NCBI GenBank assembly: GCA_021324445.1
Contig: JAJPJC010000335.1
Location: forward strand, 1-18,210
From: Isosphaeraceae bacterium
GTDB taxonomy: Bacteria; Planctomycetota; Planctomycetia; Isosphaerales; Isosphaeraceae
Reading direction: 5' to 3'
DNA length: 18,210 nt
The translations under genes and the position numbers were made by a program. This document shows positions 857 through 18,210 of the stretch, piece after piece; the first letter of the stretch is position 1, and each line of letters opens with the position of its first letter. The notes under the pieces are model-generated. The model ran no database searches. It saw nothing but the letters and a program-made list of their open reading frames with translations, and had not been told where the DNA came from.

Positions 857-920
857 CCAAAGAACGGCCCTGTCATGGTCTAGGTCTGTTCTGACCACGG
901 CCCACGGCCCACTGCGCAGA

Positions 921-2500: not shown

Positions 2501-2530
2501 GGATCGCTCGTGGACTTTCAGGGAGAAGCG

Positions 2531-3145: not shown

Positions 3146-3147
3146 GC

Positions 3148-3272: not shown

Positions 3273-4437
3273 TGAGGCCATAGCCGAGCACCCCGGCCCA
3301 GAGTCGCTCGTAGGCCGCGACGGTGCTCTCGATCGAGAATTCGCGCTCGACGCGAAGGCGGGCCGCCGCGCCGTAGCGGCGGCAGCGCTCGGGGTCATCC
3401 ACCGCTTCGAGGAGGGCCTGGCTGAGCGCGGCGGGGTCGCGGGGTGGGACGAGCCAGCCGGTCTGGCCGGGAACGACCAGGTCCTCGGTTCCCTCGACGG
3501 CCGTGGCGACGACGGGCCGTCGTGCGGCCATGGCCTCGAGCACGACGTTGGGCATGCCTTCCCAGTGCGAGGCGAGCACCAGCAGGTCGGACGCCTTGAG
3601 CAGGCCGGGCATGTCCGCCCGCGGGCCCAGCCAGTGGACCCGGTCGCGCAGGGTGGGCCGGTGCTGGAGCTGCTCCCGCAGCCAGCCGCGCTGGGGACCG
3701 TCGCCGGCCATCACCAGGTGCCATCCGGGGCGGCGGGCGATCACCCGCTCGGCGGCCTCCAGCAGGTCGGGCAGTCCTTTCTGCGGATCGAGCCGGCCGG
3801 CGTAGAGGACCAGGTGTGCGTCGACCGGAACACCGATGGCCGCGCGCGGGACCGGCTCCGCGAGATCATACGGCGCGGGGTCGATCCCATTCGGGATCAC
3901 GGTCAGCCGCGCCGGGTCGAGCCCGGCGACATCCCGGCTGAAGTTCCGCACCCCCTGGGAGACGCAGACCGATCCGGTCGACAGCCGCGCCGTCAGGCGA
4001 TCCAGGACCCGGTGCCAGCGCTTCTGACGCTCGGCGACCCGCAAGCCGCCCAGGACCCACGGCCGGCCCGCCCAGGGCGCCGCCAGCCGCGACGCCAGGT
4101 TGGCGTGGAACAGGAAGCTCTGGACCAGCTCCGGGTCGAACCGCCGCAACCGGACCGCCAGCCGCGCAATGGCCGCCATGGGGTTCCTCCGGCCGACGCC
4201 CAGGCATTCGCAGGGAATGCCGGCACTGCGGATGACCGCGGCCAGGGCGCCCGGACCCCCCAGGCAGAAGACACCCGGGCGCCATCGCGCCGGATCCAGC
4301 CGGGTTGCCAGCGCGGTCAAGGCCCGCTCGGCACCCCCGACATCCAGATCGGTGATCACCAGCGCCAGGCCGACCGGACGGCCCGGCCAGGGACGAGAGG
4401 GAGCCGCGGCCAGGCGTTCGCGGAGGCTCGGTTGCAC
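3250..4437 (-). CDS. GT4-family (GT-B fold) glycosyltransferase
   Basis: Seen: the N-terminal sugar-donor region LALVITDLDVGGAERAL, plus the C-terminal conserved region EGMPNVVLEAMAARRPVVATAVEGTEDLV (an E-x7-E-like motif) and YAGRLDPQKG, match GT4 hallmarks. Confidence 0.85.
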   Translation of the reverse strand: MQPSLRERLAAAPSRPWPGRPVGLALVITDLDVGGAERALTALATRLDPARWRPGVFCLGGPGALAAVIRSAGIPCECLGVGRRNPMAAIARLAVRLRRFDPELVQSFLFHANLASRLAAPWAGRPWVLGGLRVAERQKRWHRVLDRLTARLSTGSVCVSQGVRNFSRDVAGLDPARLTVIPNGIDPAPYDLAEPVPRAAIGVPVDAHLVLYAGRLDPQKGLPDLLEAAERVIARRPGWHLVMAGDGPQRGWLREQLQHRPTLRDRVHWLGPRADMPGLLKASDLLVLASHWEGMPNVVLEAMAARRPVVATAVEGTEDLVVPGQTGWLVPPRDPAALSQALLEAVDDPERCRRYGAAARLRVEREFSIESTVAAYERLWAGVLGYGLTAGRSTQ

Positions 4438-4754
4438 GGAAGTATCGCGCAGGCGTCTGGCCTACCCTCCTTCATGGCATGTGGTGAACCTCCCAGAGAG
4501 CTTTCACCCGGCAATCCCATTATGCACCGGTCCGGTGCTTGGTACGCATTCCACGACCGGACCTCGGGTCGGAGTGGATTCGCCGACGGGAATCGTCTCT
4601 TGAGATTCGCGCCCCGTCCTTGGAAATCGCGGTGGCGGTGTGCGATGTAATCGGAGACTCGAGGCCCGTGATTGACCTGGCGACGGTCTGGGGCAGGGGC
4701 AACCACATTCAACTCCACTGTGAACGGCTACCCCGGGCCGAGGCCCGGCGGCCC

Positions 4755-4800
4755 AGACCGAAGGGGGCGGCACGATGCCGCCCGGTCTTTCCCCTTCGGG
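4755..4800. other. GC-rich nested stem-loop (possible U-tract-less terminator or structured RNA element)
   Basis: Seen: outer 9-bp stem CCGAAGGGG (4758-4766) / CCCCTTCGG (4791-4799). It encloses an inner hairpin GCGGCA-CGA-TGCCGC (4767-4781). An alternative outer pairing is AGACCG (4755-4760) / CGGTCT (4783-4788). It lies in the 546-bp gap between the stop of the secreted-protein gene (4984) and the GT4 start (4437). No U/A tract flanks it on either strand. Confidence 0.4.
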
Positions 4801-4983
4801 ATTGGCACGGCGGCGGCAAATCGACCCGATCTGTTCTGGTGTCCACTCCACTTTATCTCCCGACCCCGATTTCTCCATTTCACACTGAACCAGCACACGT
4901 TCAGCGCGCTCGAGATGGGGATGAACACCAGCAGCCAGTTCAGCTTCATCGTTGCTCGCGTCCAAACCCCGCGCCGCCTCGCC

Positions 4984-6810
4984 TCACCTGGAGAAGCTCA
5001 GTCCCGGGTCGTCGGGGCCGTCGCCGGCCACCCGGAACGTCATGTGTTCGGCGTCCTTCCAGCTCAGGCGACCGACCAGCGGGGGGCCCTTGTCCTGGAC
5101 CAGAGTCAAGATGCCCGCCCCGTAGGTCGAGGTCCCGGTGAAGTGCTGCGCCTTGCCTTTCTGGTTGACCTGCCAGGTGAACTGGCCCCCGGGCTGGATG
5201 GTCAAGCCGATCTCGGTGTCCGCGGTCGGATGAGCCTTCCAGGTCCCGGCCATCGACGCGCCCTGGGGCGGGGTCGTGTCGACCGGGGCAGGCTCGGGAG
5301 CGGTGGCCGTCGTGGTCTGGTCCTTGGGCACATCGAGCTGGCGGAGCAACTTCGCCGACAGCGTATCGCTGGGCATCAGCGCCACCACCTGCTTGAGCAC
5401 GCTCACGGCCGCATCGATGTAGCCTTCGGTCAGGTAGTGGTAGCTGAGAACGAACCGGGCCGCGGCCGAGTTGGGGTTGGCCGCGCAAGAGTCTTCCAGC
5501 GCGCGGAGCTGCGCGGTGTAGACGTTGACGTCGGGGTAGAGGCTCACCAGCGTCGGCCAGTCCCAGCCGGGTCCGATCGAGAGCACGGCATAAAGGGTTG
5601 CGGCCGCGGCCTCATACTGCTTCAGGGCGAACTGGCAGAGCGCACGGAACTCGTGCAGGGCCGTGTCGTTGGGCAGCTTGGCCAGGGCGTCGTTGGCCTG
5701 CGCCAGGGCCTGCGTGTAGTTGCCTTGCTTGAACGAATCCCGCGCGGCGTCGAATGTGGCGATCGCGGGGTCGGCGACCGCATCGCCCGCGGGCGCAGTG
5801 GTGGTGTCGATCGGCTGCGCGTAGTCGTAGGGCACGGCAGCCGCGGATTGATCGACGAAGGCCACCGGGGCGGCGTAGTAGGGGTTGGAGTACGGCAGGT
5901 AGCCCATCCCATACAGCGCCGACCCGTAGCCCCAGGACGCCAGGCCGTAACCCAGGCCCATCCCCAGGCCCAGGCCCATCCCCCAGCCCCAGCCGCCCCA
6001 GTAGGGTCCACGCCAGGCCCAGGCGGCGTTGTTGTGTCCGTTCCAGTAGCCGTGGACCCAGCCGGCGTGATAGGCCCCGTAGGCGTTGTTCCCGTAGGCG
6101 CGATACCCGGCGGCGCCGCCGCGAGATCCGACGGCCGCTCCCCCGGCACCGACCGCCGCGCGGCCGCGCTCGCCGCCGGCGACGACGCCCCCGGGACCGG
6201 CTGCGAATCCACCGCGCGAGCCCGCGACGGCGGTCCCGCGCGGTCCGGCGGCGGCGGCCACGTTCGAGCGACCACCCACCGCGTTTCCAGCCGGCCCCAC
6301 GGCACCCCCGGCCCGGCCCACGTCCGTGAAGGTCCGCCCACCCGCCGTCGTCACCTGGGCCCCGGCGACCCCGCGACCGGCCATCCCGCCGCCGGGTCCG
6401 ACCACTCCACGCCCCGCGGCGCCGTAATCGATCGTCCCGCCCCGTGCGGTGGTGTCGGAGCCGGTCCGCGCTCCCGTGGCCATGCCGCCGCCGGCGTACG
6501 GGTTATATCCCCGAAACTCGCCACCCCCCCGATCGAACGTCCCGGCCGAGCTGAAGGAGGGCGTCCGGCCGAACGAGGAGGCGCCGCCGTAACCGCCGCG
6601 AAAGCCCTCGGCGCCGCCGGAGCGCATGCCGCCCATCTCGCCCCCGCGGAAGCCGCCCATCTCGCCCCCGCGGAAGCCCCCAGAACCGCCGGCTCGGACG
6701 CCGCCGCCGCCACGGAAGCCGCCTCCGCCAAACCCGCGCGCCAGGGCCGACCCACCGGAGAGAGCCACCGTCAGGCACGTCAAGACAAGGATCGTCCAGT
6801 TGCGAGTCAT
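4984..6810 (-). CDS. secreted protein: signal peptide, ~280-aa Gly/Arg/Ala low-complexity region with FRGG/RGG repeats and a Trp/Tyr/Gly-rich segment, TPR-like helical region, C-terminal beta-rich domain
   Basis: Seen: MTRNWTILVLTCLTVALSGGSALA signal peptide. Repeats GGFRGGEMGGFRGGEMGGMRSGG. The segment YWNGHNNAAWAWRGPYWGGWGWGMGLGLGMGLGYG. A TPR-like region QGNYTQALAQANDALAKLPNDTALHEFRALCQFALKQYEAAAATLYAVLSI...LSYHYLTEGYIDAAVSVLKQVVALMP. A C-terminal domain GTWKAHP...FTWQV...LTLVQDKG. The ATG at 6808-6810 overlaps the TGA of the upstream gene (ATGA). Confidence 0.8.
   Translation of the reverse strand: MTRNWTILVLTCLTVALSGGSALARGFGGGGFRGGGGVRAGGSGGFRGGEMGGFRGGEMGGMRSGGAEGFRGGYGGASSFGRTPSFSSAGTFDRGGGEFRGYNPYAGGGMATGARTGSDTTARGGTIDYGAAGRGVVGPGGGMAGRGVAGAQVTTAGGRTFTDVGRAGGAVGPAGNAVGGRSNVAAAAGPRGTAVAGSRGGFAAGPGGVVAGGERGRAAVGAGGAAVGSRGGAAGYRAYGNNAYGAYHAGWVHGYWNGHNNAAWAWRGPYWGGWGWGMGLGLGMGLGYGLASWGYGSALYGMGYLPYSNPYYAAPVAFVDQSAAAVPYDYAQPIDTTTAPAGDAVADPAIATFDAARDSFKQGNYTQALAQANDALAKLPNDTALHEFRALCQFALKQYEAAAATLYAVLSIGPGWDWPTLVSLYPDVNVYTAQLRALEDSCAANPNSAAARFVLSYHYLTEGYIDAAVSVLKQVVALMPSDTLSAKLLRQLDVPKDQTTTATAPEPAPVDTTPPQGASMAGTWKAHPTADTEIGLTIQPGGQFTWQVNQKGKAQHFTGTSTYGAGILTLVQDKGPPLVGRLSWKDAEHMTFRVAGDGPDDPGLSFSR
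6628..6675 (-). repeat. perfect 24-bp tandem repeat x2 (encodes EMGGFRGG x2) plus a degenerate third copy upstream
   Basis: Seen: GCCGCCCATCTCGCCCCCGCGGAA at 6628-6651 and again at 6652-6675, in frame within the low-complexity region. Confidence 0.7.
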
Positions 6811-7874
6811 CGGGGGCTCCTGGTCGGGTTCGGGGACGTGGAAGGCCCCGCCTGGACTCTCGGCGGAGTTCGCGGCGGGGGCGGGACGCGGACCATGACG
6901 TACGCTTGGGCCCCGGGGATCGAGGCCTCCCCGAGCACGCGGTCGGTCGAGGACCAGCGCACCAGGTCGGATCGCTCCCGGATCAGGATGTTGGTCGACG
7001 AGGCAGCGACCCCCTCCGGTCGGGCGCCGGTGTGCTTGACGAGCCAGCGGTCGCCGTCACGGCTCCAGGTCCCCTCGCCGAAGCCGCCTTCGGAGTCGAA
7101 TTCCCAGGACCGGATCCGCCGGGCCAGCGGGTCCCAGCCGATGCGCTGGGAGACCGTCATCACCGGCTTGCCCTGCTGCCTGACCGTGAACGAGCGGATG
7201 AGGAAATTCCCGTCCTCCGACCAGCGGCAATTGACCCGGACCTGCGAATCGGAGGCCTCGTCGACCCAGTCGCCGATCATCCATTCGAGATCCTTGAGCC
7301 GATCGTGGGGCCGGACCAGCGGGTCGGCCTCCTCGCGGACGCTGGAAATGAGCCAGCGCCCGCCGCGCTTGACATACAAAACTGTGTACGGCTGGGCCAG
7401 GCGCGTATCCTGGGTCGGCCTGACGATCGTGCGGCCCTCCTCCTGGGCGACATCCGGGCTGAGGAACCGGATCGATCCGATCTCCAGCGCGATCGTCACC
7501 CCCGGGCTGGCGGCGAAGGTGTCGGCGAGACGGCGTTCGATCTGGTCACGTCCCTGAAGATGGTCGCCTTCGGCCTCGACGGCCTCGGCATCCTCGGTGA
7601 AGAGGGCCGCCAGGGCCTTGCTGTCGCCCTGGTTATAGGCGCGGACAAAGGCCTCATCGACGGCGCGGACGGCCTGCTCGTCCGCGGATTGGCCTGGACG
7701 GCTCGCCGCGGTTCCGTCCCCTCTGGTGGACGGGTTCGCCCGCGGCGGCTCCGGCTGGGACGAGACCTCGGCCCCGACCTGGGAGCGGGCCAGGCCGGGC
7801 CCGAGGATGGTCCCGAGCAGGGCGATGACCGCCAGCGGACCGACCACGCGGAATGTCCTGTTTTGAGAGATCAT
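6807..7874 (-). CDS. exported protein with two tandem NTF2-like (SnoaL/DUF4440-like) domains
   Basis: Seen: N-terminal hydrophobic segment RVVGPLAVIALLGTILGPGLA. Domain 1 is VRAVDEAFVRAYNQGDSKALAALFTEDAEAV...GRDQIERRLADTF...RGGRWLI. Domain 2 is LEWMIGDWVDE...VRVNCRWSEDGNFLIRSF...DGDRWLV. Both follow the NTF2-like pattern of an N-terminal helix with Asp/Glu, an aromatic cluster and a C-terminal W-L-hydrophobic sheet. A Pro-rich tail follows. The stop overlaps the downstream start. Confidence 0.75.
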   Translation of the reverse strand: MISQNRTFRVVGPLAVIALLGTILGPGLARSQVGAEVSSQPEPPRANPSTRGDGTAASRPGQSADEQAVRAVDEAFVRAYNQGDSKALAALFTEDAEAVEAEGDHLQGRDQIERRLADTFAASPGVTIALEIGSIRFLSPDVAQEEGRTIVRPTQDTRLAQPYTVLYVKRGGRWLISSVREEADPLVRPHDRLKDLEWMIGDWVDEASDSQVRVNCRWSEDGNFLIRSFTVRQQGKPVMTVSQRIGWDPLARRIRSWEFDSEGGFGEGTWSRDGDRWLVKHTGARPEGVAASSTNILIRERSDLVRWSSTDRVLGEASIPGAQAYVMVRVPPPPRTPPRVQAGPSTSPNPTRSPR

Positions 7875-8140
7875 GAGACGAGCATGCTCCCGGGCTAACG
7901 AGTTGATGACGGACGCCGGTTGCGGCCCGAGTTGTCAAGCGAACGCGAATCGGGGGCCTCTTCGTCCCCGTGTTGAGTTGGCTGGCTGCTCGCGGCCATC
8001 CTCCGCGCCCGATCCCCGGGGGTTGGGTGCCACGATCCGACCATGCGATCAGCCGCACAGCGGGAACGTCCTGCGCCGAATCCGGATCGGCCGACGTCTG
8101 CGATCACGGTCCTGAGACTACTCGCCGCGACTCACAACAG

Positions 8141-8776
8141 TCAAGGTCCAGGAGCGGCAGCGCCGGCTGAGGGAATGGCCGCGACGGGGCGGTCGCCCGC
8201 TGGAGCGGAGGACGGGTCCTTGGGGCGTGCTTCCAGGAGCATCCGCAGGTAAGACCGGGGCTCCACCTCGGTCAAGCCCAGCTCGGCGGCCAGGGCGAGC
8301 ACGGCGGCTTGCGCCGCGGGGAGCTGGGACTCATCGGCCACCAGGATCTCGATCTCGGCGAAATCGCCCAGGTGCTCGGCGCGGTCGAGCGACACCTCGA
8401 GCCCGTGCGGTGGATCCACCAGGTGGAAGGTCGTCCGTGTCTTGCGGACCGTGGCGACCGGGCGGAATCCCAGGATCTCGAAGAGCCGCGCGAGCTGCGC
8501 AAAGGCGTCGGCGCCCGGGGCGAGTGGGAGCTCGATCTCGGTGCGGGTCTTGGTCGGACCCTGCCGCCGGGGACCCTTGTAGGTGATCCGGTTCTCATCA
8601 CCAATCCGCCGCAGCCGCATCGCCTCATGGGTCGCGGCGAAATCGCGGGAGGGATGGTTCAGATAAACGTCTTCCTGGATGACCGGCGCCGCGGCGGCCG
8701 CACCCCGCTCGAGGAGCCGCCGCCGGAGCTGGTCGTGATCGACCGATCGGTACTTGACCTCCACTTCGAAACTCAT
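8141..8776 (-). CDS. CYTH-domain protein (triphosphate tunnel metalloenzyme / class IV adenylyl cyclase-like)
   Basis: Seen: MSFEVEVKYR (the E-x-E-x-K CYTH signature at the N-terminus), followed by QEDVYL...MRLRRIGDENRITYKGP...TRTEIELP...FHLV...EVSLD...GDFAEIE. The start is chosen at the internal ATG 8774-8776, which gives the canonical CYTH N-terminus; the track ORF extends to 8878. Confidence 0.7.
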   Translation of the reverse strand: MSFEVEVKYRSVDHDQLRRRLLERGAAAAAPVIQEDVYLNHPSRDFAATHEAMRLRRIGDENRITYKGPRRQGPTKTRTEIELPLAPGADAFAQLARLFEILGFRPVATVRKTRTTFHLVDPPHGLEVSLDRAEHLGDFAEIEILVADESQLPAAQAAVLALAAELGLTEVEPRSYLRMLLEARPKDPSSAPAGDRPVAAIPSAGAAAPGP

Positions 8777-8997
8777 GGACCCAGCGTAGGCCGCAGGTCC
8801 GGACCGGTCAACCGCCAGTGCCGCGCGCGCGGCCGGATTGTCCCGAATATTCCCTCCGGGCGACGAATAACCGTCCACTCCGGGGATTGAACCACTCCGG
8901 TGACCCGGCTGATCGGGTAATCTTTGCGGGACCGAGGCCCCGGGCGGGATGGGCCGTCCGGAGCGGTCATCGCGTTCGTTCGCAGAGGAGCGTCGCT

Positions 8998-11277
8998 GTG
9001 GGGAGCCTGTTCTGGGTGTTGGCCATCGTCGCCATCGTGGTGATCGGATGTGAGCTCACCGGCTTGCGCTACATCGCCAACAACCGAGTCGGAATCGTCG
9101 AGAAGCTCTGGTCCGTGAAAGGGTCGGTGCCCGAGGGGCGGATCATCGCGCTGGAAGGTGAGGCCGGCTTCCAGGCCGAGGTGCTCCGCGGTGGCATGCA
9201 CCTCGGCTACTGGCGATGGCAATACCGCATCCATCGCGTCCCCCTGGTCACCATCTCCCAGGGCAAGATCGGTTACGTCTATGCCCGCGACGGCGAAGCC
9301 CTCCAACCCAGCCAAACCCTGGGGCAGGTGATTGCTTGCAATCACTTCCAGGATGCACGGCGGTTCCTGGGGGGCGTGGGGGTGAGTCCCGAACAGGAGC
9401 CGCTGGTCGGGCAGCGGGGCCGCCAGCGGGCGATCCTGCGTGAGGGCGTTTACGCCATCAACCTGGCGCTGTTCATGGTGATCACCGAGGAGGCGGTGTA
9501 TCGGCTGGAGACCGGCGGCTCGAAGGAGCTCAAGGCGCTGGTCAACTGGCAAAACGAGCTGGGCCAGATCGAAGGGTTCAGCCCGGTGATCATCGGTGGG
9601 CCGGTCGAGGCGCCGGACCCACTCAATCCTGGCAAGACCACCCTGGTCGACAGCACGGGAATCGTGACGGTGCATGACGGTCCGTCGCTGCCGCCGGGCG
9701 AAATCATCGCGCCGGCGGTGGGGTGCGACCGCAACGACAAGGACTTCCACAACAACTATCAGGATCCCGAGGCGTTTCTCCGCGCCGGGGGGCGCCGGGG
9801 CTTGCAGTACGTCCCGCTGACCGACGGCACCTACTTCATCAACCGTTGGTTCGCCACCATCGAGTCGATCCCCAAAACGATCGTACCGATCGGTTACGTT
9901 GGCGTGGTGGTCAGCTACTATGGCCGGAGTGGGCAGGACATCTCGGGGCAGGCGTTCCGTCACGGCGAGCGAGTCGGGGAGGGGGAGCGCGGCGTCCAGG
10001 AGAAGCCGCTGGGCCCGGGCAAGTATGCGTTCAATACCTACGCCGGGAACATCATCCTGGTCCCCACCACCAACTTTGTCCTGCACTGGGTGACCGGGCG
10101 CACCGAGGCGCATCGCTACGACGAGAGCCTCCGCTCGATCGACCTGGTGACCAAGGATGCCTACGAGCCGACCCTGCCCCTGTCGGTCGTCGTCCATATC
10201 GACTATCAGAAGGCGCCCAACGTCATCCAGCGGTTCGGCGACGTCAAGAAGCTGATCACCCAGACGCTCGACCCGATGCTCAGCGCCTACTTCCGTGACG
10301 TGGCGCACAAGCGGACGATGCTGGCGTTGCTCCAGGACCGCGATTCGATCCAGCACGAGGCGACCGAGGAACTCGGCCGCAAGTTCCACATCTTTGACAT
10401 CGAGTGCGTCGACGTCCTGATCGGCAAGCCCGACACCGAATCGGCCGGCGGCAAGATCGAGACCCTGCTCGAGCAGTTGCGGCTGCGGCAACTGTCGTTG
10501 GAGCAGGTCGAGACCTACTCGAAACAGGTCACGGCCGCCCAGACGCTGCGCACACTCAATGAGGCCCAGGCCCAGGCGCAGATGCAAACCCAACTGTCGA
10601 ACTCGATGGTGCAGATCCGCATCGCCGAGAACGAGGCGGAGGCGCAGCTCGCCCGGGCGCGCAAGCAGGCCGAGCAGGTCGTTGTCACGGCCGAGGCCGA
10701 GAGCCAGCAGCGCATCCTGGCCGGTCGCGGCGAGGGCGCGCGGGTGCTCCAGGAGGGCCTGGCCGAAGCGTCGGTGTTGCTCCGGAAGATCAACTCGTTC
10801 TCCGATCCGCGGCTCTATGCGCTCTCGGTCGTGGCCGCCAACCTGGCCAAGTGCACACAGCCGCTGGTGCCCGAGCGCGTCTTCATCGGCGGTGTCGGGG
10901 GCGGCAACGGCGCCCCGGGTGAGAACCCGCTCACCGCCGGGGGCGGCGCGGCGGCCGGGAGCGGGCTCTTCGGCCTGCTGCTGAGCCTGCTGGTCGCCGA
11001 GAAATCGGGCTTCCAGCTCGCCGAGCACCCCGCGGAATCGGAGCTCCGCGCCTTCACCGAGAAGGTCACGCGCCAGGCGATGGAGTCAATCCAGCAGTCG
11101 CTGGGACCGGTCAAACGCCCCAAGAATCCTCGGCTTCAACCGCAGGCGATGGACTCGATCCAGCAGGTCGTGGGCGAGGAGGGTTTCGCGCCGGAGCCGC
11201 GCGGCGACGCCGCGCCGCCTCCGACCACCACGGCCGCGCGCCTCGACGGCCTCGATGGCGGTCGCGCCGCCACCTGA
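8998..11277 (+). CDS. SPFH/band-7 (flotillin-like) membrane protein with long Ala/Gln/Glu coiled-coil C-terminal region
   Basis: Seen: GTG start at 8998 with SD AGAGGAG about 8 nt upstream. N-terminal TM helix LFWVLAIVAIVVIGC. A band-7-like core (GVVVSYYGRSG...KYAFNTYAGNIILVPTTNF...LPLSVVVHIDYQ). A flotillin-type EA/Q-rich coiled coil (QAQAQMQTQLSNSMVQIRIAENEAEAQLARARKQAEQVVVTAEAESQQRILAGRGEGARVL). The Gly/Ala-rich tail precedes a final segment ESELRAFTEKVTRQAMESIQQSLGPVKRPKNPRLQPQAMDSIQQVVGEEGFAPEPRGDAAPPPTTTAARLDGLDGGRAAT. The antisense ORF 8773..11028 is rejected. Confidence 0.65.
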   Translation: MGSLFWVLAIVAIVVIGCELTGLRYIANNRVGIVEKLWSVKGSVPEGRIIALEGEAGFQAEVLRGGMHLGYWRWQYRIHRVPLVTISQGKIGYVYARDGEALQPSQTLGQVIACNHFQDARRFLGGVGVSPEQEPLVGQRGRQRAILREGVYAINLALFMVITEEAVYRLETGGSKELKALVNWQNELGQIEGFSPVIIGGPVEAPDPLNPGKTTLVDSTGIVTVHDGPSLPPGEIIAPAVGCDRNDKDFHNNYQDPEAFLRAGGRRGLQYVPLTDGTYFINRWFATIESIPKTIVPIGYVGVVVSYYGRSGQDISGQAFRHGERVGEGERGVQEKPLGPGKYAFNTYAGNIILVPTTNFVLHWVTGRTEAHRYDESLRSIDLVTKDAYEPTLPLSVVVHIDYQKAPNVIQRFGDVKKLITQTLDPMLSAYFRDVAHKRTMLALLQDRDSIQHEATEELGRKFHIFDIECVDVLIGKPDTESAGGKIETLLEQLRLRQLSLEQVETYSKQVTAAQTLRTLNEAQAQAQMQTQLSNSMVQIRIAENEAEAQLARARKQAEQVVVTAEAESQQRILAGRGEGARVLQEGLAEASVLLRKINSFSDPRLYALSVVAANLAKCTQPLVPERVFIGGVGGGNGAPGENPLTAGGGAAAGSGLFGLLLSLLVAEKSGFQLAEHPAESELRAFTEKVTRQAMESIQQSLGPVKRPKNPRLQPQAMDSIQQVVGEEGFAPEPRGDAAPPPTTTAARLDGLDGGRAAT

Positions 11278-11351
11278 GAGCCCGCGGATGACGCCAGGAC
11301 GCCATCCGGGGTTGGTGGTCCAGCCAGAGCGGGCGCATCCACCCTCCCTGA

Positions 11352-11372
11352 CCCCCCCTGATCAAGGGGGGG
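11352..11372 (+). terminator. C7-TGATCAA-G7 hairpin (possible factor-independent terminator after the flotillin-like gene; no U-tract)
   Basis: Seen: CCCCCCC (11352-11358), loop TGATCAA, GGGGGGG (11366-11372). It lies 75 nt after the stop at 11277 and is followed by AAAGGGAGG, not a T-run. Confidence 0.35.
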
Positions 11373-11440
11373 AAAGGGAGGACCCCGACCGGATACCGAT
11401 TAAATTCCTTGATATATTTTTCTTACTGATTCTCTCGGGC

Positions 11441-11469
11441 TTGATCCCGCGTCGATCCTCGGCTAGAAT
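11441..11469 (+). promoter_or_regulatory. sigma70-like promoter for rpsR: TTGATC -N17- TAGAAT
   Basis: Seen: -35 TTGATC at 11441-11446, a 17-bp spacer, and -10 TAGAAT at 11464-11469. It sits in the only AT-rich patch (11395-11440) upstream of rpsR and predicts a ~95-nt 5' leader. Confidence 0.5.
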
Positions 11470-11565
11470 CTGGGTTTCGCGTCCGGGCCGCCGGGAGTGG
11501 CCAGGCCCAGTGACGCACCCTCCCTGAGTGATCATCCAGCGCAACTGACTGAGGTAAACGGGTTT

Positions 11566-11808
11566 ATGCCGAGGAAGAAGTTCGGACGCAACCGCAAGAA
11601 TCGTTGCCGTTTCTGCACACCCGAGGGTTGCCCTCGGCCGGCCTACGTCGACTACAAGGACGTCGGCCTGCTCAAGAAGCTCTGCACCAATCAGAACAAG
11701 GTCTTTTCCCGCAAGCGCAGCGGCAGTTGCGCGGCCTTTCAGCGCGCCGCCAGCGCAGCGGTCAAGCGCGCCCGCTTCATGGCGTTGCTGCCGTATGTCG
11801 GGGAATGA
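11566..11808 (+). CDS. rpsR: 30S ribosomal protein S18
   Basis: Seen: MPRKKFGRNRKNRCRFC...VDYKDVGLLKKLCTNQNKVFSRKRSGSCAAFQRAASAAVKRARFMALLPY matches the S18 family signature (CRFC, IDYKD-x-LL, KRAR-x-ALLPY). SD GAGGT lies 8 nt upstream of the ATG. It is monocistronic here, with no rpsF or rplI in the window. Confidence 0.9.
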   Translation: MPRKKFGRNRKNRCRFCTPEGCPRPAYVDYKDVGLLKKLCTNQNKVFSRKRSGSCAAFQRAASAAVKRARFMALLPYVGE

Positions 11809-11831
11809 GCCGCCGGTAGCCGGATCTCCCC

Positions 11832-13436
11832 CTACGGGCCGGGCACGGTCCGGATTGAGCCGCCCCGACCCGGCGGGTTCACCCTGGGCTGCGGCTCGCG
11901 GTGCCGGGCGCCGCCACGACCGTCCTTGAGGAAGGAAAGGAGCTGGGCCTCGAGAGTGGCGTACGGCTGACCCAGGCGATCCTGGAGCGATCGGCCGGTC
12001 GTGCGCTTGATCCGCCCGCGGTAGGCGTCGCGGACATAGTCGAGGAAGCCGTCGCGATAGGTCCCCTGGCGGGCCTGCATCAAGAAGACGGTCAGGGCCA
12101 TGCCTTCCTGGTAACGGAGGTAAATGCCGGAATCGTCGCGCTTGAAGGCGTCCTCGCCGAGGGCGACGAACTGGGCCAGCGGGATCGCCCGGCCCTGGTC
12201 CACCAGGGCTTTGATCGCTTCGGCGATCCGGGGCCCGACCAGGCCCCCGACCTCGATCGAGCCGTCGGGCTGCGGCTCGACCGTCTCGAAGTAGGTGCCC
12301 AGCCCCTCGAAGACCCAGTAGTTGCCGTAGTTCTTGGTGTACTGATTGGGCCCAGCCATCTCGAAGAGGAGCTGATGCGAGACTTCGTGGTAGAGATTGG
12401 CCGTGACCGGGAGCTGCCCTCCGGGGTCGTGGAAGAAGTAGGCCGGTGCCCGGCCGCCCCGTCCGGGCCTGGGGGGGTCGTAAAAGCCGAGGCTTTGCGC
12501 GATCTCGGCCCCGTACCTGGGACTGAGGTGTTCCGCGTATTCGTCCTTGGACCCGAAATAGTAAACCAGATGGGGCTTCGACGTGGGCTCGCCCACCAGG
12601 GCCGGATCGCGGAACCGGCGGGCTAAGGGGAGGTTGTCACCGAGCAGATCCGCCATCAGGGCCGAGAACAGGTCGTGGAAGGCTTCCAGTCGGCGGCCGA
12701 AGCTGATCGCTTCGGCCAGGGGAAGATTGGTCTGGACCTCGAAGTGCTCGGTGAAGATCTGCCAGGGGGGTTTCCAACCGGCTCGGAGGCGGTCGGCATC
12801 CACGGCCGCCAGCCATCGCACCTTCTGGCCCCGGACCTGCGGCGCGGGCAGCTCGCCGCGATCCAGGTGTGGCAGCCAGTCGGACTTCACCCAGCCGAAG
12901 ACCGGATGATCGACCAACCCGTTCTGAAGTTGTCCCACGGCAAAGGGCCTGGCCCAGCCGCCGGCATGCGGCACGTACCCCAGCAGCCGGCGCGCCTCGG
13001 GGTGATCGGGCTGCCGCTCCAGGACCCCGCGCAGGCACCGGTCGGCCAGCGCGTACCGCGGCGGTTGCGCGTGGGCGGCCCGCTGGGCCAGCGCGAACAG
13101 CTCGGACGCAAACCGCCCCTGGATCGCCGCGAGCTGGGACCGCCACGCCGCCACTTCCCCCTTGGGACGGGGCCCGACCACATCCGGCAAGGGGACGAAC
13201 TGCGTCGGTCCATCCGGGGCCACCTCCCGGGGAAGCCGCCCGCGCACCTCCCGGGCCGCCTGCACATTCCCCGTCCCGGCCAGCCGGTCGGCCAGCTCGC
13301 TCAAGTCCGCCGCCTCGCTCGCCAGGATCGCCCGTCGGGAGGTTTCGAGCTCACGCGCAACCGCTTCGCCCGTCAGCGGCCGCGGAACCTGACCCACAAC
13401 CCCCAGCAACCCGACGAGACACCATGAGCAGGACAT
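11832..13436 (-). CDS. secreted HExxH zinc-metallopeptidase-like protein (gluzincin-like; resembles Planctomycete DUF1570 family)
   Basis: Seen: signal peptide MSCSWCLVGLLGVVGQVP. The motif HEVSH with Glu residues 9 and 28 residues downstream (LLFEMAG...WVFEGLGTYFE). SD AAGGGAG lies 6 nt upstream of ATG 13436. The track ORF extends to 13532, but the signal peptide and SD favour 13436. Confidence 0.75.
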   Translation of the reverse strand: MSCSWCLVGLLGVVGQVPRPLTGEAVARELETSRRAILASEAADLSELADRLAGTGNVQAAREVRGRLPREVAPDGPTQFVPLPDVVGPRPKGEVAAWRSQLAAIQGRFASELFALAQRAAHAQPPRYALADRCLRGVLERQPDHPEARRLLGYVPHAGGWARPFAVGQLQNGLVDHPVFGWVKSDWLPHLDRGELPAPQVRGQKVRWLAAVDADRLRAGWKPPWQIFTEHFEVQTNLPLAEAISFGRRLEAFHDLFSALMADLLGDNLPLARRFRDPALVGEPTSKPHLVYYFGSKDEYAEHLSPRYGAEIAQSLGFYDPPRPGRGGRAPAYFFHDPGGQLPVTANLYHEVSHQLLFEMAGPNQYTKNYGNYWVFEGLGTYFETVEPQPDGSIEVGGLVGPRIAEAIKALVDQGRAIPLAQFVALGEDAFKRDDSGIYLRYQEGMALTVFLMQARQGTYRDGFLDYVRDAYRGRIKRTTGRSLQDRLGQPYATLEAQLLSFLKDGRGGARHREPQPRVNPPGRGGSIRTVPGP

Positions 13437-13450
13437 CGCAGCTCCCTTGC

Positions 13451-13617
13451 GCGTACGCAGTACGCAGTGAAGACCGACCGAGAGCGAGGCAACACGGAGA
13501 GACACCCGGGAATGCGAGTTCCTCTGTTCCACTCCTATCGCCGATCGACGAGATCCTCAAGATCTTATTCGCCCGGCCCCGCTTCCAGAAGCTCTTCACT
13601 GCGGATTGCGTACGGCC
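13451..13617. repeat. Second inverted pair of the (K-ACGCAG)n...TGAAGA motif, flanking ~113 bp in the peptidase-gene leader/promoter region
   Basis: Seen: 13451-13480 reads GCGTACGCAGTACGCAGTGAAGACcgaccg. The reverse complement of 13594-13617 reads GGCCGTACGCAATCCGCAGTGAAGAG. The left copy sits at -15 to -44 from the peptidase start codon and abuts its SD. The same motif occurs at 3148-3180. Confidence 0.5.
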
Positions 13618-13723
13618 TGAATGATCTGGACGCCACCCGGAGATCGTCGCACAATGCAGGCCCTGGGTGGGGGTCGATCCCTGGGGCGGTCCGCGTTTGG
13701 CCCACGTATTGGAGGCGACGATC

Positions 13724-14278
13724 ATGGATGTCCCGCGCTCGCGCATTCCCACGGCGGTGGTGCTGCTGGCGGGTGTGGCTCTGGGGTGGCTGCTGGCGAG
13801 TTTCCGACTGGCCCCGGCTCGGGCCGGGGCCGGGGACCGGTCCGGCGAGAGCATCGTGGCGACCGGACCGGTGCTGGTACGCTTCGACGAAGGGGCCAAG
13901 GCGGCAATCCCGCTCGACGCCTTGTATTTCCTCGACTACAAGGGGGGCCGGCTGATCGCCACGGTCCCCGCGTTTCGCCAGACCGGTGCGGTACCGCACC
14001 TGATCGACACGTTCGCCGAGCGCGACCTGGCGGTCGACTTTCAGCTCAGACTGGAAAGCGGCCCGCGTCCCCACTTCCTGATGACCACCGGCTCCCTCGG
14101 CGCCTACAGCGCGGGCTGGGCTCCGCTTTATGTCTTGGAGACGACCACCAACCAACTGGGGATCTATCGAATGCAGACTTCCCAGACAGCCGGGACGATC
14201 TCGCGGCCTCGGCTCGACCTGGTCGAGCTGCGGTCCTACACCCGGCCGCTGAGTCCCGCGCCGCCGGCTTCTCCTTGA
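13724..14278 (+). CDS. hypothetical membrane-anchored protein (N-terminal TM helix, ~150-aa extracytoplasmic domain)
   Basis: Seen: SD GGAGG lies 8 nt upstream of ATG 13724. The TM segment is TAVVLLAGVALGWLLASF and the composition is balanced. The overlapping frame 13621..14481 is Arg/Gly/Pro-rich and rejected. Confidence 0.5.
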   Translation: MDVPRSRIPTAVVLLAGVALGWLLASFRLAPARAGAGDRSGESIVATGPVLVRFDEGAKAAIPLDALYFLDYKGGRLIATVPAFRQTGAVPHLIDTFAERDLAVDFQLRLESGPRPHFLMTTGSLGAYSAGWAPLYVLETTTNQLGIYRMQTSQTAGTISRPRLDLVELRSYTRPLSPAPPASP

Positions 14279-14323
14279 GGCGCGGAGCGGCCGGGCCGCG
14301 GCCGGATTGGTCCGCTCGGCGGC

Positions 14324-15070
14324 TCAGCCCGGTCCACGACGGCCGCCGGGACCTCCGGGCCCAGGCGGTCCGCCCCCCATGGCCGGCGCGGTGCCTGGGG
14401 CGGCGCCGCCGGCGCCCTCGACGGCTCCCTCCTCGGGCAGCAAGTGTTCGTCGCCATACGGCCGGGCCTCGAAATGATTGAGGAGCCACTCCGCGCGCGG
14501 ATCGAAGACCTGCACCGGCTCCCGATTGTTTCCCCAAACCCCGTAGGTCCCGAACGGATCGCGCGCTCCCCTGCCATACTGAGCGAACACATCCCCCGTC
14601 TGGTACTGGAAGAAGCCCAGCCACTGATGATCGAGCCCCAGTCCGAAGGGTGGCTTCGTCTCGTGATCGATCACCGTAAAGATCTTCTTGTGCACCGGCG
14701 CCGTGTGGAAGGCCAGGATGACGATCGCCATGGTCACCAGCGCCCCCCCCAGGCCGAAGATCAGCCGGCCAAGATGGAAGATCGGGGTGGGGAATCGCAC
14801 CATGGCCGGGGCGATCGTCTCGGTCGTCATCCGCAGGAGCACCACTGAGACGCAGAACAGTCCCAGCAGGCAGAGCGTGTCCGAAAAACCCCAGGGGATG
14901 CCGGTCCGATCGAGGAGCTGAGCCAGCGGCTCGTAGAAGTTGAAGGCGATCATCCCGCCGAACAGGACGTTGAAAAACATCAAGGCCGCGCCCCAGAGCC
15001 CCTCGCTGATCAGGGCATACCACAAGCCGAGGATCAGCACCACAATGATCAGGTTGATGACCGCATACAT
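14324..15070 (-). CDS. CvpA-family-like polytopic membrane protein with Gly/Pro-rich C-terminal tail
   Basis: Seen: MYAVINLIIVVLILGLWYALISEGLWGAALMFFNVLFGGMIAFNF..., then 3 further hydrophobic helices. The first-helix pattern (I-D/N-hhhhhhh...G-h-x-E) resembles CvpA/colicin V production protein. SD GAGGGA lies 7 nt upstream. The assignment is from memory of the family and is moderately confident. Confidence 0.5.
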   Translation of the reverse strand: MYAVINLIIVVLILGLWYALISEGLWGAALMFFNVLFGGMIAFNFYEPLAQLLDRTGIPWGFSDTLCLLGLFCVSVVLLRMTTETIAPAMVRFPTPIFHLGRLIFGLGGALVTMAIVILAFHTAPVHKKIFTVIDHETKPPFGLGLDHQWLGFFQYQTGDVFAQYGRGARDPFGTYGVWGNNREPVQVFDPRAEWLLNHFEARPYGDEHLLPEEGAVEGAGGAAPGTAPAMGGGPPGPGGPGGRRGPG

Positions 15071-15174
15071 GAGACTTCCCTCAAAAGACGAAATCGGGCG
15101 ATCGACGGCGGAGGGTCGGGAGACGGGCCGGCCGCACCGGCATCCCGGAGTCGGCGCGGCCCTCGGCTCCGGCC

Positions 15175-16932
15175 TCATTTCACGACGCGCAGCAGCTCCT
15201 CGATCGAGGTTCGGCCCTGGATCACCTGACGCAGGCCGTCTTCCTGGAGGTAGATCATCCCATTCTTGCGAGCCTCGGCCTTGATCTTGTTGATCGACGG
15301 ATTCTCGCGGATCATGTCCCGCAGCGCCTCGGTGATGATCAGGAGCTCGTAGATTCCCGTCCGGCCGAAATAGCCGGTGCCGCCGCATTGCTGGCAGACC
15401 TGTTCCGGGTTCTCGGGACGGCGGTAGAAGACGTCCACCTTCTCGGCGGGCAGGTTGGCCTTCTTGAGGAATTCGGGCTTGGGCTTGTACGGCTCCTTGC
15501 AGGATTCGCAGAGGATGCGGACCAGCCGCTGGCCCAGGACCGCCGAGAGGGCTGAGGCGATCATGAACGGCTCGACACCCAGATCGAGCAGGCGGAACAG
15601 CGCCGTCACGGCGTCATTGGAGTGTACCGTCGAAAAGACCATGTGGCCGGTGTTGGCCGCCTGGCAGGCGATCGAGGCGGTTTCCTGGTCGCGGATCTCG
15701 CCGATCATGATCACGTCGGGGTCTTGACGCAGGATCGACCGCAAGGCGGTCGCGAAGGTCTGCCCGGCCTTGGTGTTGACCTCCATCTGGGTGACGTTGT
15801 CCAGGTGGTACTCGATCGGGTCTTCCACGGTGATGATGTTCTTCTGGTAGCGATCGATCTCGCGGAGCGAGGCATACAGCGTGGTCGACTTGCCCGCCCC
15901 GGTCGGGCCGCAGCAGAGGAACATCCCGTGCGGCTGGGTCACCAGGTTGCGCACCTGCTCGACCAGCTTGGGCCGCATGCCCAGCTCCTCGAGCTTGGTG
16001 ATCGAGGCGCTGTTGTCCAGGATGCGCATCACCAGCTTCTCGCCGGCCTTGGATCCCGAGGTGGCCACGCGGAAGTCCAGGTCCCGGGCCTGGAGCTTGG
16101 CGCCGAAGGAGCCGTCCTGGGGCTTCCGCTTCTCGGAGATGTCCATGGCCGCGAGGACCTTGAAGACGTTGACCACCGCATCGCCGGTCGGCCGGTCGAA
16201 CGGCTCGGCGGCGTGGAGGATGCCGTCGATCCGATACCGCACCGAGAGCTGCTCGGTCGACGGCTCCAGGTGGATGTCGGTCGCCCGGCGGAGCACGGCG
16301 TCATAGACCAGCTCCTTGGCCGCCATGTAGGACCGCGATTCCTCGGCCCGGCGCACCCGATCGGGATCCTCCTTGGCCGAACCCTGACTCTTGCCGACGA
16401 AGGTGATCGGCGGACCGGCCCGGTCCACCGGCGTGACGTCGCGGTTGAACAGCGGCCGCATCCCCAGCTTGAACAACAGGTCGTTGGCGACCTCGCCCAG
16501 GTGGTAGGGCGTCATCACCTTCTGGTCGTCGGGCACCATCTGGTTGCGGTTGTAGATGTAAATGAACAGCGGGATGAAATAGGCCAGGAGCAACAGCGCC
16601 AGGCCGATCAGGAAGAACCGGCCCCAGGGCAGCGCCAGCATCACGACCAGCCCGAGGACGCCGGAGAAGAACACGACGCTATTCCACAGGCCGAAGCGCG
16701 GGTTGTTCAGCTCCTGGGTGTCGTGCTCGACCCAGTCGGTGGTCCACACCCAGAGCAGGTAGATCAGCACGACCGGGATGAACTTGAAGAGGTTCAGATA
16801 GAGTCCCGGCCCCCGCACGACGGTTTGCGACTGCGCGAGCAGGACCGGGAGAACCTCGGCGGCTTCGGCGGCGCCGGCACCGCCGAGGAGCAGGATCAGC
16901 GTGGTCGCGAGCAGCAGGGACGGGCGAATCAT
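15175..16932 (-). CDS. GspE/PilB-family secretion ATPase with N-terminal 4-helix transmembrane domain replacing the N1 domain
   Basis: Seen: the hydrophobic segments are LLLATTLILLLGGAGAA, FIPVVLIYLLWVWTTDWV, VVFFSGVLGLVVMLALPW and FFLIGLALLLLAYFIPLFIYIY. An N2-like domain follows (ATDIHLEP...VRYRIDGIL...KPQDGSF). Walker A is GPTGAGKST. Other family motifs are ITVEDPIEY (Asp box), DVIMIGEIRD (Walker B) and TGHMVFSTVHSN (His box). The tetracysteine is CESC...CQQCGG. The whole ORF is continuous with uniform GC3. SD GAAAGG lies upstream. Confidence 0.85.
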   Translation of the reverse strand: MIRPSLLLATTLILLLGGAGAAEAAEVLPVLLAQSQTVVRGPGLYLNLFKFIPVVLIYLLWVWTTDWVEHDTQELNNPRFGLWNSVVFFSGVLGLVVMLALPWGRFFLIGLALLLLAYFIPLFIYIYNRNQMVPDDQKVMTPYHLGEVANDLLFKLGMRPLFNRDVTPVDRAGPPITFVGKSQGSAKEDPDRVRRAEESRSYMAAKELVYDAVLRRATDIHLEPSTEQLSVRYRIDGILHAAEPFDRPTGDAVVNVFKVLAAMDISEKRKPQDGSFGAKLQARDLDFRVATSGSKAGEKLVMRILDNSASITKLEELGMRPKLVEQVRNLVTQPHGMFLCCGPTGAGKSTTLYASLREIDRYQKNIITVEDPIEYHLDNVTQMEVNTKAGQTFATALRSILRQDPDVIMIGEIRDQETASIACQAANTGHMVFSTVHSNDAVTALFRLLDLGVEPFMIASALSAVLGQRLVRILCESCKEPYKPKPEFLKKANLPAEKVDVFYRRPENPEQVCQQCGGTGYFGRTGIYELLIITEALRDMIRENPSINKIKAEARKNGMIYLQEDGLRQVIQGRTSIEELLRVVK

Positions 16933-17088
16933 CGCTTGCAGACCTTTCTTCGGAGCGAAGCCATTCCTCGGGCGAGAGGGAGCGGGTTCTTGCGGGCCGG
17001 ACCCGCGGCGTTGATCTCGTCGTCGACCCCTGATCGCACCCGGCGGACCGCCCGGGCATACCGCCGCGATCGCCTGCGCCGGGACGAG

Positions 17089-18210
17089 TTAGAGGATGCC
17101 CTGTTCGGGCAGGGTGATCCCCTTGAGCACCATCCGCAGAGTCTCCGGGTTGGGGGCGAATTCGAAGGCGACGGCGCGCTCGATCTTCTCCGCGACCACC
17201 AACTGGCGCAGGCTCTCGGTGAAGTCGACCATCCCCTCTTCCTTGCCCAGCCGGATGGCCTGGGCGAGCTTGAGGTCTTCCTCGTTGAGGATCAGCTTCT
17301 TGACAGTCGGGTTCATCCGCATGACCTCGACCAGCGGGACACGGGTCCGGCCGGTCGCCGCGGCATAGTCCTTGGTCGTCGGCAGCAGCTTCTGAGCGAC
17401 GATCGCCTTGAGGTTGAATGCCAGGTTCTGCCGCATGGCCGAGTGCATGTCCTTGGGAAACAGGTCGAGGATCCGGCTGATGGTCGACGGGGCGCTCGAG
17501 GCGTGGATCGTGCAGAAGACCAGGTGGCCGGTCTCGGCGGCGTGCATGGCGGCAAGGAAGGTGTCGCGGTCGCGCATCTCGCCGACCAGGATGATGTCGG
17601 GATCCTGGCGCACGGCGTGCTTCAGCGCGACGTCCCAGTTGACGACGTCGATCCCCACCTCCCGTTGATTGATGATACACTTGTCATCCTTGAAAGTAAA
17701 TTCGATCGGGTCTTCGATGGTGACGATGTGGCAGCGCTCGCGTTGATTGACGTACTGGAGCATGGAGGCGATGGTGGTCGACTTGCCGCTGCCGGTGACC
17801 CCGGCCAGGATGATGATCCCCTGGTCGTGGCTGGCGATTTCGCCCAGGACCGGGGGCAGGCCGAGGCCCTCGAAGTCGGGGATCGAGGTATTGACGCGGC
17901 GGGCGACCAGGCTGAGCCGGCCGCGCTGCCGGAACAGGTTGACGCGGAAGCGGGTCTCGTCGCCGTTGGGGTCGACGATGATGTGGGCGAAGTCGACCCC
18001 ACCGGTCTCCTCCAGGATGTCCTTCTGGCGGGGCGACAGCAGCGGGAACATGAGCCGATCCATGTCGTGGGTGGTCAGGACCGGCAGTTGCATCATCCGG
18101 AGCACGCCGGCCAGCCGCATGGCGGGGGGCAGCCCGACCTTCAGGTGCAGGTCGGACCCCTTGTACTTCATGACCATCCGGAAGAGCTTGTTCGCCTCCG
18201 GCTCGTTGGG
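17089..18210 (-). CDS. pilT: PilT-family (type IV pilus retraction-type) hexameric ATPase, 5' end truncated by window edge
   Basis: Seen: GSDLHLKVGLPPAMRL, Walker A GVTGSGKSTT, IVTIEDPIEF, ILVGEMRD, GHLVFCTIHASSAPSTISRILDLFP. These align with canonical PilT. The frame stays open to 18210 with no in-frame ATG, so the true start lies beyond the window. Confidence 0.85.
   Translation of the reverse strand, partial: PNEPEANKLFRMVMKYKGSDLHLKVGLPPAMRLAGVLRMMQLPVLTTHDMDRLMFPLLSPRQKDILEETGGVDFAHIIVDPNGDETRFRVNLFRQRGRLSLVARRVNTSIPDFEGLGLPPVLGEIASHDQGIIILAGVTGSGKSTTIASMLQYVNQRERCHIVTIEDPIEFTFKDDKCIINQREVGIDVVNWDVALKHAVRQDPDIILVGEMRDRDTFLAAMHAAETGHLVFCTIHASSAPSTISRILDLFPKDMHSAMRQNLAFNLKAIVAQKLLPTTKDYAAATGRTRVPLVEVMRMNPTVKKLILNEEDLKLAQAIRLGKEEGMVDFTESLRQLVVAEKIERAVAFEFAPNPETLRMVLKGITLPEQGIL

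Follow-up and report, generated by a model that had tools for sequence, protein, structure and literature searches.

A paired heptamer array upstream of a planctomycete DUF1570 peptidase gene has relatives dispersed between the genes of several phyla

An inverted pair of heptamer arrays between two divergent genes

The stretch of DNA analysed here, 18,210 nucleotides of an Isosphaeraceae bacterium (GenBank assembly GCA_021324445.1, contig JAJPJC010000335.1, positions 1 to 18,210) and referred to throughout as the window, has a GC content of 67% and comes from an Isosphaeraceae-like planctomycete known from metagenome assemblies only. Two of its genes, one for a DUF1570/HExxH peptidase on the minus strand and one for a 184-residue protein on the plus strand, diverge from a spacer that holds an inverted pair of short tandem arrays of 7-nt units, which we call element B. 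A first-pass annotation had singled out this pair at 13451-13617, and both sequences that it quoted were found in their places. Element B is a new member of an already known kind of repeat, the intergenic heptamer arrays, and it has relatives in many other genomes, forming a family that is almost always intergenic and occurs in every gene-orientation context. The features of the locus are the following, the arms and the interior of the element being listed without a strand.

11832-13436, minus strand: gene for the DUF1570/HExxH peptidase, 534 aa, with its ATG at 13436
13442-13448, minus strand: the peptidase gene's Shine-Dalgarno-like sequence, AAGGGAG, which follows the proximal arm by 2 nt on its 3' side and precedes the ATG by 5 nt
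13451-13474: proximal arm of element B, GTCTTCA CTGCGTA CTGCGTA CGC on the minus (peptidase-sense) strand
13475-13593: interior (loop) of element B, 119 nt, without similarity to the interiors of other family members
13531-13571, minus strand: 41-nt core inside the loop, CGAATAAGATCTTGAGGATCTCGTCGATCGGCGATAGGAGT, conserved with the ortholog L004
13594-13617: distal arm of element B, GTACGCA ATCCGCA GTGAAGA on the minus strand, the inverted partner of the proximal arm
13626-13656, plus strand: box adjoining the distal arm, with TGGACG (13627-13632), a 17-nt spacer and CACAAT (13650-13655)
13724-14278, plus strand: divergent gene of 184 aa, with no Pfam match and syntenic in the orthologs

On the plus strand the arms read GCGTACGCAGTACGCAGTGAAGAC (13451-13474) and CTTCACTGCGGATTGCGTACGGCC (13594-13617), the proximal one being two GTACGCA heptamers followed by GTGAAGA, and the arm design of the element is thus two heptamers of the GTACGCA type that run into a GTGAAGA end. 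In plus-strand terms the stem joins 13452-13473 (CGTACGCAGTACGCAGTGAAGA) to 13593-13614 (TCTTCACTGCGGATTGCGTACG) over 22 positions, with 20 Watson-Crick pairs, one G·T pair and one A/G mismatch, in agreement with the stem of about 20 bp proposed by the first-pass annotation, and this long-range stem was predicted in the folds of both strands (-74.6 kcal/mol, z = -5.2, for the plus strand and -85.4 kcal/mol, z = -2.3, for the peptidase-sense strand). Two of the distances given earlier had to be corrected: the gap between the copies is 119 nt and not about 113 nt, and the proximal copy lies 2 nt from AAGGGAG, the 4 nt proposed being its distance to GGGAG. With a looser extension the arms grow to 39 nt (13452-13490 and 13576-13614, 77% complementarity), and this pair is the longest among the 436 inverted pairs of the window. 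Allowing up to three mismatches, the double heptamer TACGCAGTACGCAG occurs seven times in the window, in every case at 13451-13617 or at 3150-3270, against an expectation of 0.76 from shuffled sequences, none of which reached seven in 200 trials. Period-7 tracts, found by Tandem Repeats Finder (TRF) together with pattern scans, fall at 3152-3170, 3241-3270 and 13453-13468.

Two conserved segments accompany the arms. The box at 13626-13656, which reads CATTGTGCGA...GTCCAG on the minus strand, is kept upstream of the 184-aa gene in most orthologous loci, at about 50-85% protein identity, and it is probably the promoter of that divergent gene, while the core at 13531-13571 may be a candidate promoter or leader element of the peptidase gene. 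A consensus promoter scan at both loci of the window with heptamer pairs returned no promoter and did not place the transcription start of the peptidase gene. The 184-aa neighbour matched no DNA-binding domain, and no regulator gene adjoins element B.

A sister element between two gene ends

The first-pass annotation had also pointed to a related motif at 3148-3272, and this proved to be a real inverted pair, which we call element A.

3150-3178: left arm of element A, GTACGCA GGACGCA GGACGCA ATGAAGA C
3241-3270: right arm of element A, GCAGGAC GCAGTAC GCAGTAG GCAATAC on the minus strand
3250-4437, minus strand: GT4 glycosyltransferase gene, its C-terminal end lying within the right arm

The left arm begins 4 nt past the stop codon of a plus-strand gene of 204 aa (2531-3145), and the GT4 glycosyltransferase gene ends within the right arm, which includes its final codons and its TAG stop (3252-3250), so that element A lies between the ends of two convergent genes, where a function as a leader or as an operator cannot apply. 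Its stem comprises 17 nt with one mismatch (fold z = -3.6 and -2.7), and its loop of 62 nt, like the 119-nt loop of element B, is long yet inside the range of the family. The GT4 reading frame enters a heptamer array in three genomes (window 3250-3272, L146 4160-4180 and L144 11140-11190, where L numbers denote the loci compared), and in each of them the array starts directly past the conserved C-terminus of the protein (...LWAGVLGY). The array supplies the stop codon, and the proteins end in unrelated C-terminal tails, GLTAGRSTQ, SRQ and LEWGVGSGGWGVGNPS.

A family of arrays in distant genomes

Since both loci of the window and the ortholog L043 share the form (GCAGNAS)n-GCAG(T/C)GAAGA, we scanned one genome per species, 185,579 species in all and the window's own genome not among them, with the pattern GKASGCARKASGCARYGAAGA, a degenerate 21-mer with 128 possible variants that misses degenerate copies such as the window's own distal arm. 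The scan gave 87 matches, 48 of which are the single variant GTAGGCAGTAGGCAGTGAAGA, and the remaining matches number one or two per variant, as for a chance background of roughly 35; we count about 57 family hits. They are found in Planctomycetota (Isosphaerales, Pirellulales, Tepidisphaerales and others) and in Acidobacteriota (Pyrinomonadaceae, Vicinamibacterales), with matches in single genomes of Chlorobiaceae, Omnitrophota, Hyphomicrobiaceae, Roseiarcus and Desulfobacteraceae, and one betaproteobacterium carries the window's GTACGCA variant together with an inverted partner. The canonical unit of the family is GTAGGCA, the window genome having mostly GTACGCA or GGACGCA, and arrays contain from 2 to about 10 units. 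Close-set arrays are always convergent, of the form (GCAGTAG)n ... (CTACTGC)n, with the purine-rich GTGAAGA-like ends turned inward, and an inverted partner array lies 10-167 nt away for 27 of the 57 hits.

All-against-all BLAST of the 160 nt inside each half detected no conserved interior sequence; the similarities listed were partner arrays, segments repeated in single genomes and one unrelated pair of low GC content. An approximate gene caller placed only 2 of about 80 sites inside genes, both of which look like chance matches, and the pairs fell between tandem genes in 14 cases, convergent genes in 4 and divergent genes in 2. Many array pairs occupy the whole intergenic spacer, often leaving 2-20 nt on each side, and the genes beside the largest arrays are housekeeping genes (sucA/sucB, trpB, ferrochelatase, coaX). 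Arrays in the CTACTGC orientation abut the start codons of several unrelated genes, and upstream of sucA (L071) and of a GT2 gene (L111) an array abuts the ribosome-binding site. Two copies in one genome, L071 and L130, have common sequence just inside GTGAAGA. In 8-kb flanks we found no transposase gene beside the arrays examined, the one exception being an IS110 at a distance of about 1 kb from the L086 array.

Rfam gave no match for the whole window at the gathering score or for the element B locus at E <= 1, and on 16 family loci it gave nothing overlapping the arrays. Several other identities were tried and rejected: an intrinsic terminator, as the consensus scan found no short GC-rich hairpin with a T-run at either locus of the window; RNA-binding repeats of the HutP or TRAP kind, given the lack of a strand bias and the unsuitable taxa; integron attC sites, whose core sites are absent; and CRISPR, for which there are no spacers. 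Literature searches for GTAGGCA or GTACGCA arrays in all registers and for heptamer repeats of Planctomycetes returned no relevant paper within a coverage that excluded subscription journals, and the family of GTAGGCA-type arrays is apparently undescribed.

Two larger duplications were seen around half-elements. In L100 (2300-2460) a 74-nt segment with a heptamer half-element (CAGTAGACAGTACGCAGTAGGCAGTGAAGAC...) is present as a tandem duplicate, and in one Isosphaeraceae genome a repeat of about 740 nt (L085 3179-3920 and L111 4673-5370) includes a half-element, and paralogous glycosyltransferase-like genes begin 15-55 nt downstream of it.

Persistence and turnover at the two sites

At the positions of elements A and B, arrays persist in related genomes while the sequence and the number of their units change. 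These comparisons leave out some nearer relatives (peptidases P0002, 80%, and P0003, 76%; GT4 protein P0122, 89%). Site A is occupied in L146 and L144, whose GT4 proteins are about 80% identical, with CAGTAGG x3 ... CTACTGC x3-4 in the former and GAGTGGG x5 ... CCCACTG x3 in the latter. Site B is occupied in three orthologs. The closest, L004 (peptidase 85% identical), has the arms GGAGGCA GTGGGCA GGAAAGA and TCTGCTC TGCCTAC GCCTCC; L145 (62%) has a five-unit proximal array against its ribosome-binding site, the place of the distal arm being taken by a classical hairpin of the repetitive extragenic palindromic (REP) type headed by GTAG; and L043 (64%) has the distal half alone. Overall, 4 of about 45 orthologous peptidase upstream regions contain the element, and the 40 or so other loci are mostly empty, including L005 (68%) and L008 (66%), with two further upstream regions bearing unrelated tandem-unit hairpins. 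Outside sites A and B, no CAGT-type array was found in about 75 kb of loci chosen by protein match.

The complementarity of the arms has outlasted changes in both of them. In a global alignment of the window with L004 the arms match unit by unit, and in the stem 12 pairs are unchanged and 4 are altered on both sides and still pair; the core at 13531-13571 is better conserved between the two than the arms are, and the fold of the L004 locus is no better than that of shuffled sequences (z = -1.4). In L144 there is a G/G mismatch in each unit pair, so that homogenisation within an array can outrun pairing. The window is identical to three independent assemblies of the same organism at site B (L001, L002 and L003) and to two at site A (L006 and L007), which means that the arrays are not hypervariable. 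The genome that holds L144 and L145 favours the unit GTGGGCA, and this, taken with the recurrence of one unusual unit (GTACGCA or GGACGCA) at the two loci of the window, hints at genome-wide homogenisation.

Other hairpin repeats were noted in the course of these comparisons. Upstream of the orthologous peptidase gene in L022 (2816-2893) there is a hairpin of 9-nt tandem units (ACGCAGATT), which has ACGCAG in common with the heptamer of the window. A different and very abundant hairpin repeat with tandem units of about 11 nt (CACGGATGGAA) was seen in L045, L048 and L049 (for example L049 1570-1635 and 2337-2431), with four copies in 5.7-6.9 kb of some planctomycete contigs, one of the four being upstream of the orthologous peptidase gene. 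Classical REP-like hairpins headed by GTAG, such as CGTAGGGTGGGTGAAACCCAC / GGGTTTCACCCACCCTACCG, are present in L145 (2795-2870), L024, L035 and L050, and the one in L145 ends in GTGAAAC, resembling the GTGAAGA end of the arrays. Within the window, repeats of CCAGGCCCATCC with periods of 6, 12 and 18 nt at 5939-5999, in the region of a tetratricopeptide repeat (TPR) protein gene, are probably ordinary coding repeats.

Relation to described repeats

The closest described analogue is the set of GGGAATC heptameric repeats of Xanthomonas. These number 70-75 convergent pairs per genome in all gene contexts (Rehm et al. 2015, PMC4692102), with 16% between convergent genes and 7-8% between divergent ones, about 40% of the sites are two convergent arrays on opposite strands able to form stem-loops or cruciforms, and the position and type of a site (single or pair) are kept between species while length and sequence vary (PMC4692102). 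The present family resembles them in its tandem 7-nt intergenic units, its convergent pairs in all contexts, the scarcity of intragenic copies and the retention of sites while units change. It differs in its unit, and in having a conserved inner GTGAAGA end and an identical 21-mer in several phyla rather than in one genus. Moreover, the Xanthomonas repeats are G-rich and have been studied as G-quadruplex formers, whereas neither GTACGCA nor GGACGCA contains a run of three G, and the G-quadruplex idea is therefore not transferable.

TAACTGA repeats are known from marine Beggiatoaceae, cyanobacteria and Bacteroidetes, with 2-6 units and longer arrays in some species (MacGregor 2015, PMC4679880); they lie between genes, in many cases a few nucleotides upstream of a start codon, a translational role has been proposed for them, and their sporadic occurrence across phyla suggests horizontal transfer without an evident mechanism (PMC4679880). 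Intergenic heptamer arrays, scatter across phyla and the ACTG core, shared with CTACTGC, are common to both families. However, TAACTGA repeats are strongly biased to the sense strand close to start codons and run in direct orientation almost without exception, a single set among 170 being inverted (PMC4679880), whereas the present family has no strand bias and is commonly paired. The short tandemly repeated repetitive (STRR) heptanucleotide sequences of cyanobacteria (Mazel et al. 1990, as cited in PMC4692102) are likewise dispersed intergenic tandem heptamers, in another phylum and with other units, and inverted pairing with a defined inner end is not known to be a feature of theirs.

With REP sequences, bacterial interspersed mosaic elements (BIMEs) and REP doublets forming hairpins (REPINs) the family has in common that its inverted doublets are scattered outside genes, form hairpins, show a mild preference for the 3' ends of genes and persist in genomes for long periods, and its canonical unit contains GTAG. 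Unlike a REP, which is a short imperfect palindrome of fixed length, the present arms are direct arrays of 2-10 units with no internal palindrome, and the units of the window are mostly GTAC or GGAC and not GTAG. The inverted arms also recall MITEs, miniature transposable elements with inverted repeats, but the interior is not conserved and no duplication was seen. As a separate observation, an ACTG/CAGT core recurs in unrelated heptamer families, namely TAACTGA, CTACTGC/GTACTGC and two of the three STRR units (STRR1 CCCCAGT and STRR3 CAACAGT), and is absent from the GGGAATC unit of Xanthomonas.

Discussion

In light of these data, element B is a copy of a dispersed family of intergenic heptamer arrays, and we think it somewhat probable that it is a hairpin-prone repeat shaped by slippage and by correction of the arms or selection for their pairing, with generic effects on its neighbours; it does not serve the DUF1570 peptidase as a dedicated switch responding to a ligand or a protein. 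A half-element would consist of a tandem 7-nt array followed by a purine-rich end (GTGAAGA or similar), two halves would as a rule be turned towards each other, with 10-170 nt of unconserved spacer between them, and either strand is predicted to fold into a hairpin of 15-42 bp. Arrays would grow and shrink by slipped-strand mispairing; heptamers are the commonest unit of long simple sequence repeats in bacteria (Mrazek 2007, as cited in PMC4679880). The likeness of the arms would be kept either by selection for the stem or by intramolecular template switching on the hairpin. Such quasipalindrome correction by template switching is established in E. coli. The effect on neighbouring genes would be a generic one, exerted by an extended helix within whichever transcript runs through the element, or else by a cruciform or hairpin in the DNA. 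In site A the place of action would be the 3' ends of both convergent genes. In site B, provided that both arms are transcribed, the helix would act as a 5' clamp with the ribosome-binding site left exposed; if the core at 13531-13571 is a promoter, an upstream DNA structure and a short 5' array would take the place of the clamp. Some effect of element B on the peptidase mRNA may thus exist.

Several observations weigh against this explanation. An identical 21-mer in several phyla is hard to obtain by local slippage alone and points to horizontal spread or to a shared trans-acting factor, and the persistence of arrays at two sites over about 62-85% protein identity, with no other CAGT-type array in the 75 kb compared, could reflect a site-specific function and not neutrality. 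Proximal arrays abut the ribosome-binding site in the window, L004 and L145, as arrays do upstream of sucA and the GT2 gene, and the position of arrays by start codons resembles that of the TAACTGA repeats. The G/G mismatch in every unit pair of L144, finally, means that pairing is not always kept.

The first-pass annotation had offered several readings: an element that controls translation or stability, paired operator sites, and a candidate regulon or mobile-repeat signature. It is the mobile-repeat signature that came close, given dispersed repeats in many genomes and phyla. A gene-specific leader RNA, with both arms in the peptidase mRNA and a helix of about 20 bp beside the Shine-Dalgarno sequence controlling translation or stability, is in our judgement distinctly unlikely. 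The folding check proposed for the leader did return the long-range stem on the peptidase-sense strand, with its z of -2.3, the stem lies at the same place in L004 despite four double changes, and the proximal arrays of L004 and L145 sit against the ribosome-binding site; moreover, in L008 no more than 52 nt separate the start of the conserved box from the ATG downstream of it, so that the peptidase promoter may lie at or upstream of the box, with both arms in the leader. However, the same check left AAGGGAG outside the minimum-energy helix, the fold of L004 does not rise above its shuffles, no terminator-like site and no Rfam match was found, and, if the better-conserved core is the promoter, the distal arm would be untranscribed. 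A like element lies between convergent genes in the window itself, the family occurs in all contexts elsewhere, and most of the 45 or so orthologous leaders are without the element. Mismatches in arms between co-directional genes comprise 7 of the G·U type when read in the sense strand, against 5 (A·C) that are of this type in the antisense strand, which gives no evidence for RNA selection on one strand. Operators would be very unlikely as well. Ribbon-helix-helix proteins such as the omega repressor of pSM19035 bind direct or inverted heptads, and a DNA-binding protein that reads 7-bp units on both arms and regulates the divergent promoters would fit the periodicity, direct and inverted, the arms that bracket a conserved core and adjoin the promoter-like box of the divergent gene, and the apparently genome-specific unit, as if units co-evolved with their reader; but site A, between two gene ends, has no promoter, the family lies in tandem, convergent and divergent spacers beside unrelated housekeeping genes and often fills them, no regulator gene is nearby, and such a protein does not require strongly complementary arms. 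To a phase-variable contingency locus, in which slippage in heptamer copy number switches peptidase expression, we give almost no credence. The 7-bp repeats in the hmw1A promoter of H. influenzae (PMC8262952) are the model for such a locus, and the heptamers here lie in a promoter or leader region and number from 2 to 5 among orthologs, yet there are only two units per arm, the matching assemblies at both sites show no copy-number polymorphism, and arrays of the same kind are also found at the 3' ends of genes.

An element of the REPIN or MITE type, mobile but non-autonomous, whose inverted halves would be the ends recognised by a transposase acting in trans, for instance a REP-associated tyrosine transposase, would explain the spread within genomes and across phyla as well as the identical 21-mer in distant phyla, and we regard it as unlikely overall. 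GTAG is reportedly the head motif of REPs and is contained in the canonical unit GTAGGCA, classical REP hairpins headed by GTAG (of the GTAGGG type) are present in the same contigs and in L145 even at the place of the distal arm, the L071 and L130 copies have common sequence immediately inward of GTGAAGA, and the window genome has its unusual unit GTACGCA/GGACGCA at both loci. Conversely, the arms are tandem direct repeats in variable number and neither palindromic REPs nor fixed terminal repeats, interiors are not conserved, no target-site duplication is evident at A or B and no clean comparison of a filled with an empty site was found, the outer ends varying in unit number; arrays at orthologous sites over long divergence are unlike a recent insertion, and the IS110 in L086 is the one transposase near any examined array. 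The 21-mer shared across phyla, the genome-wide unit, the GTAG motif and the arrays at start codons nevertheless keep alive both the mobile-element and the reader-protein explanations. As a more speculative proposal, to which we assign a small chance, (GTAGGCA)n-GTGAAGA would be the recognition module of an undescribed sequence-specific system, either a new kind of element mobilised in trans or arrays with a conserved reader protein that binds nucleic acid, acting post-transcriptionally by a mechanism common to ACTG/CAGT heptamers. If this were true, the system would be common to Planctomycetota, Acidobacteriota and others of soil and peat, the genome-specific variants of the unit would co-evolve with the reader, the arrays would have been long kept at gene boundaries where they abut start and stop codons, and the ACTG/CAGT core of unrelated heptamer families would reflect the common mechanism.

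In cyanobacteria, heptamer arrays between genes have been on record since 1990, with Xanthomonas and Beggiatoaceae following later (PMC4692102, PMC4679880). To these the present family adds a sharply defined half-element, an array with its GTGAAGA end, a 21-mer that is identical across phyla, and two sites at which the arms change together and can be traced through genus-level divergence. Its interest rests on this cross-phylum identity and traceable co-evolution of the arms, and not on regulation of the peptidase. For annotation, the findings advise against reading inverted repeats of this kind as gene-specific riboregulators, and they show that such arrays are able to provide a gene with its stop codon and a spurious C-terminal tail, as happens in the GT4 gene. 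Taken together, the half-element, the shared 21-mer and the two sites make a tractable system for asking whether heptamer arrays are selfish, by-products of replication, or functional RNA or DNA hairpins.

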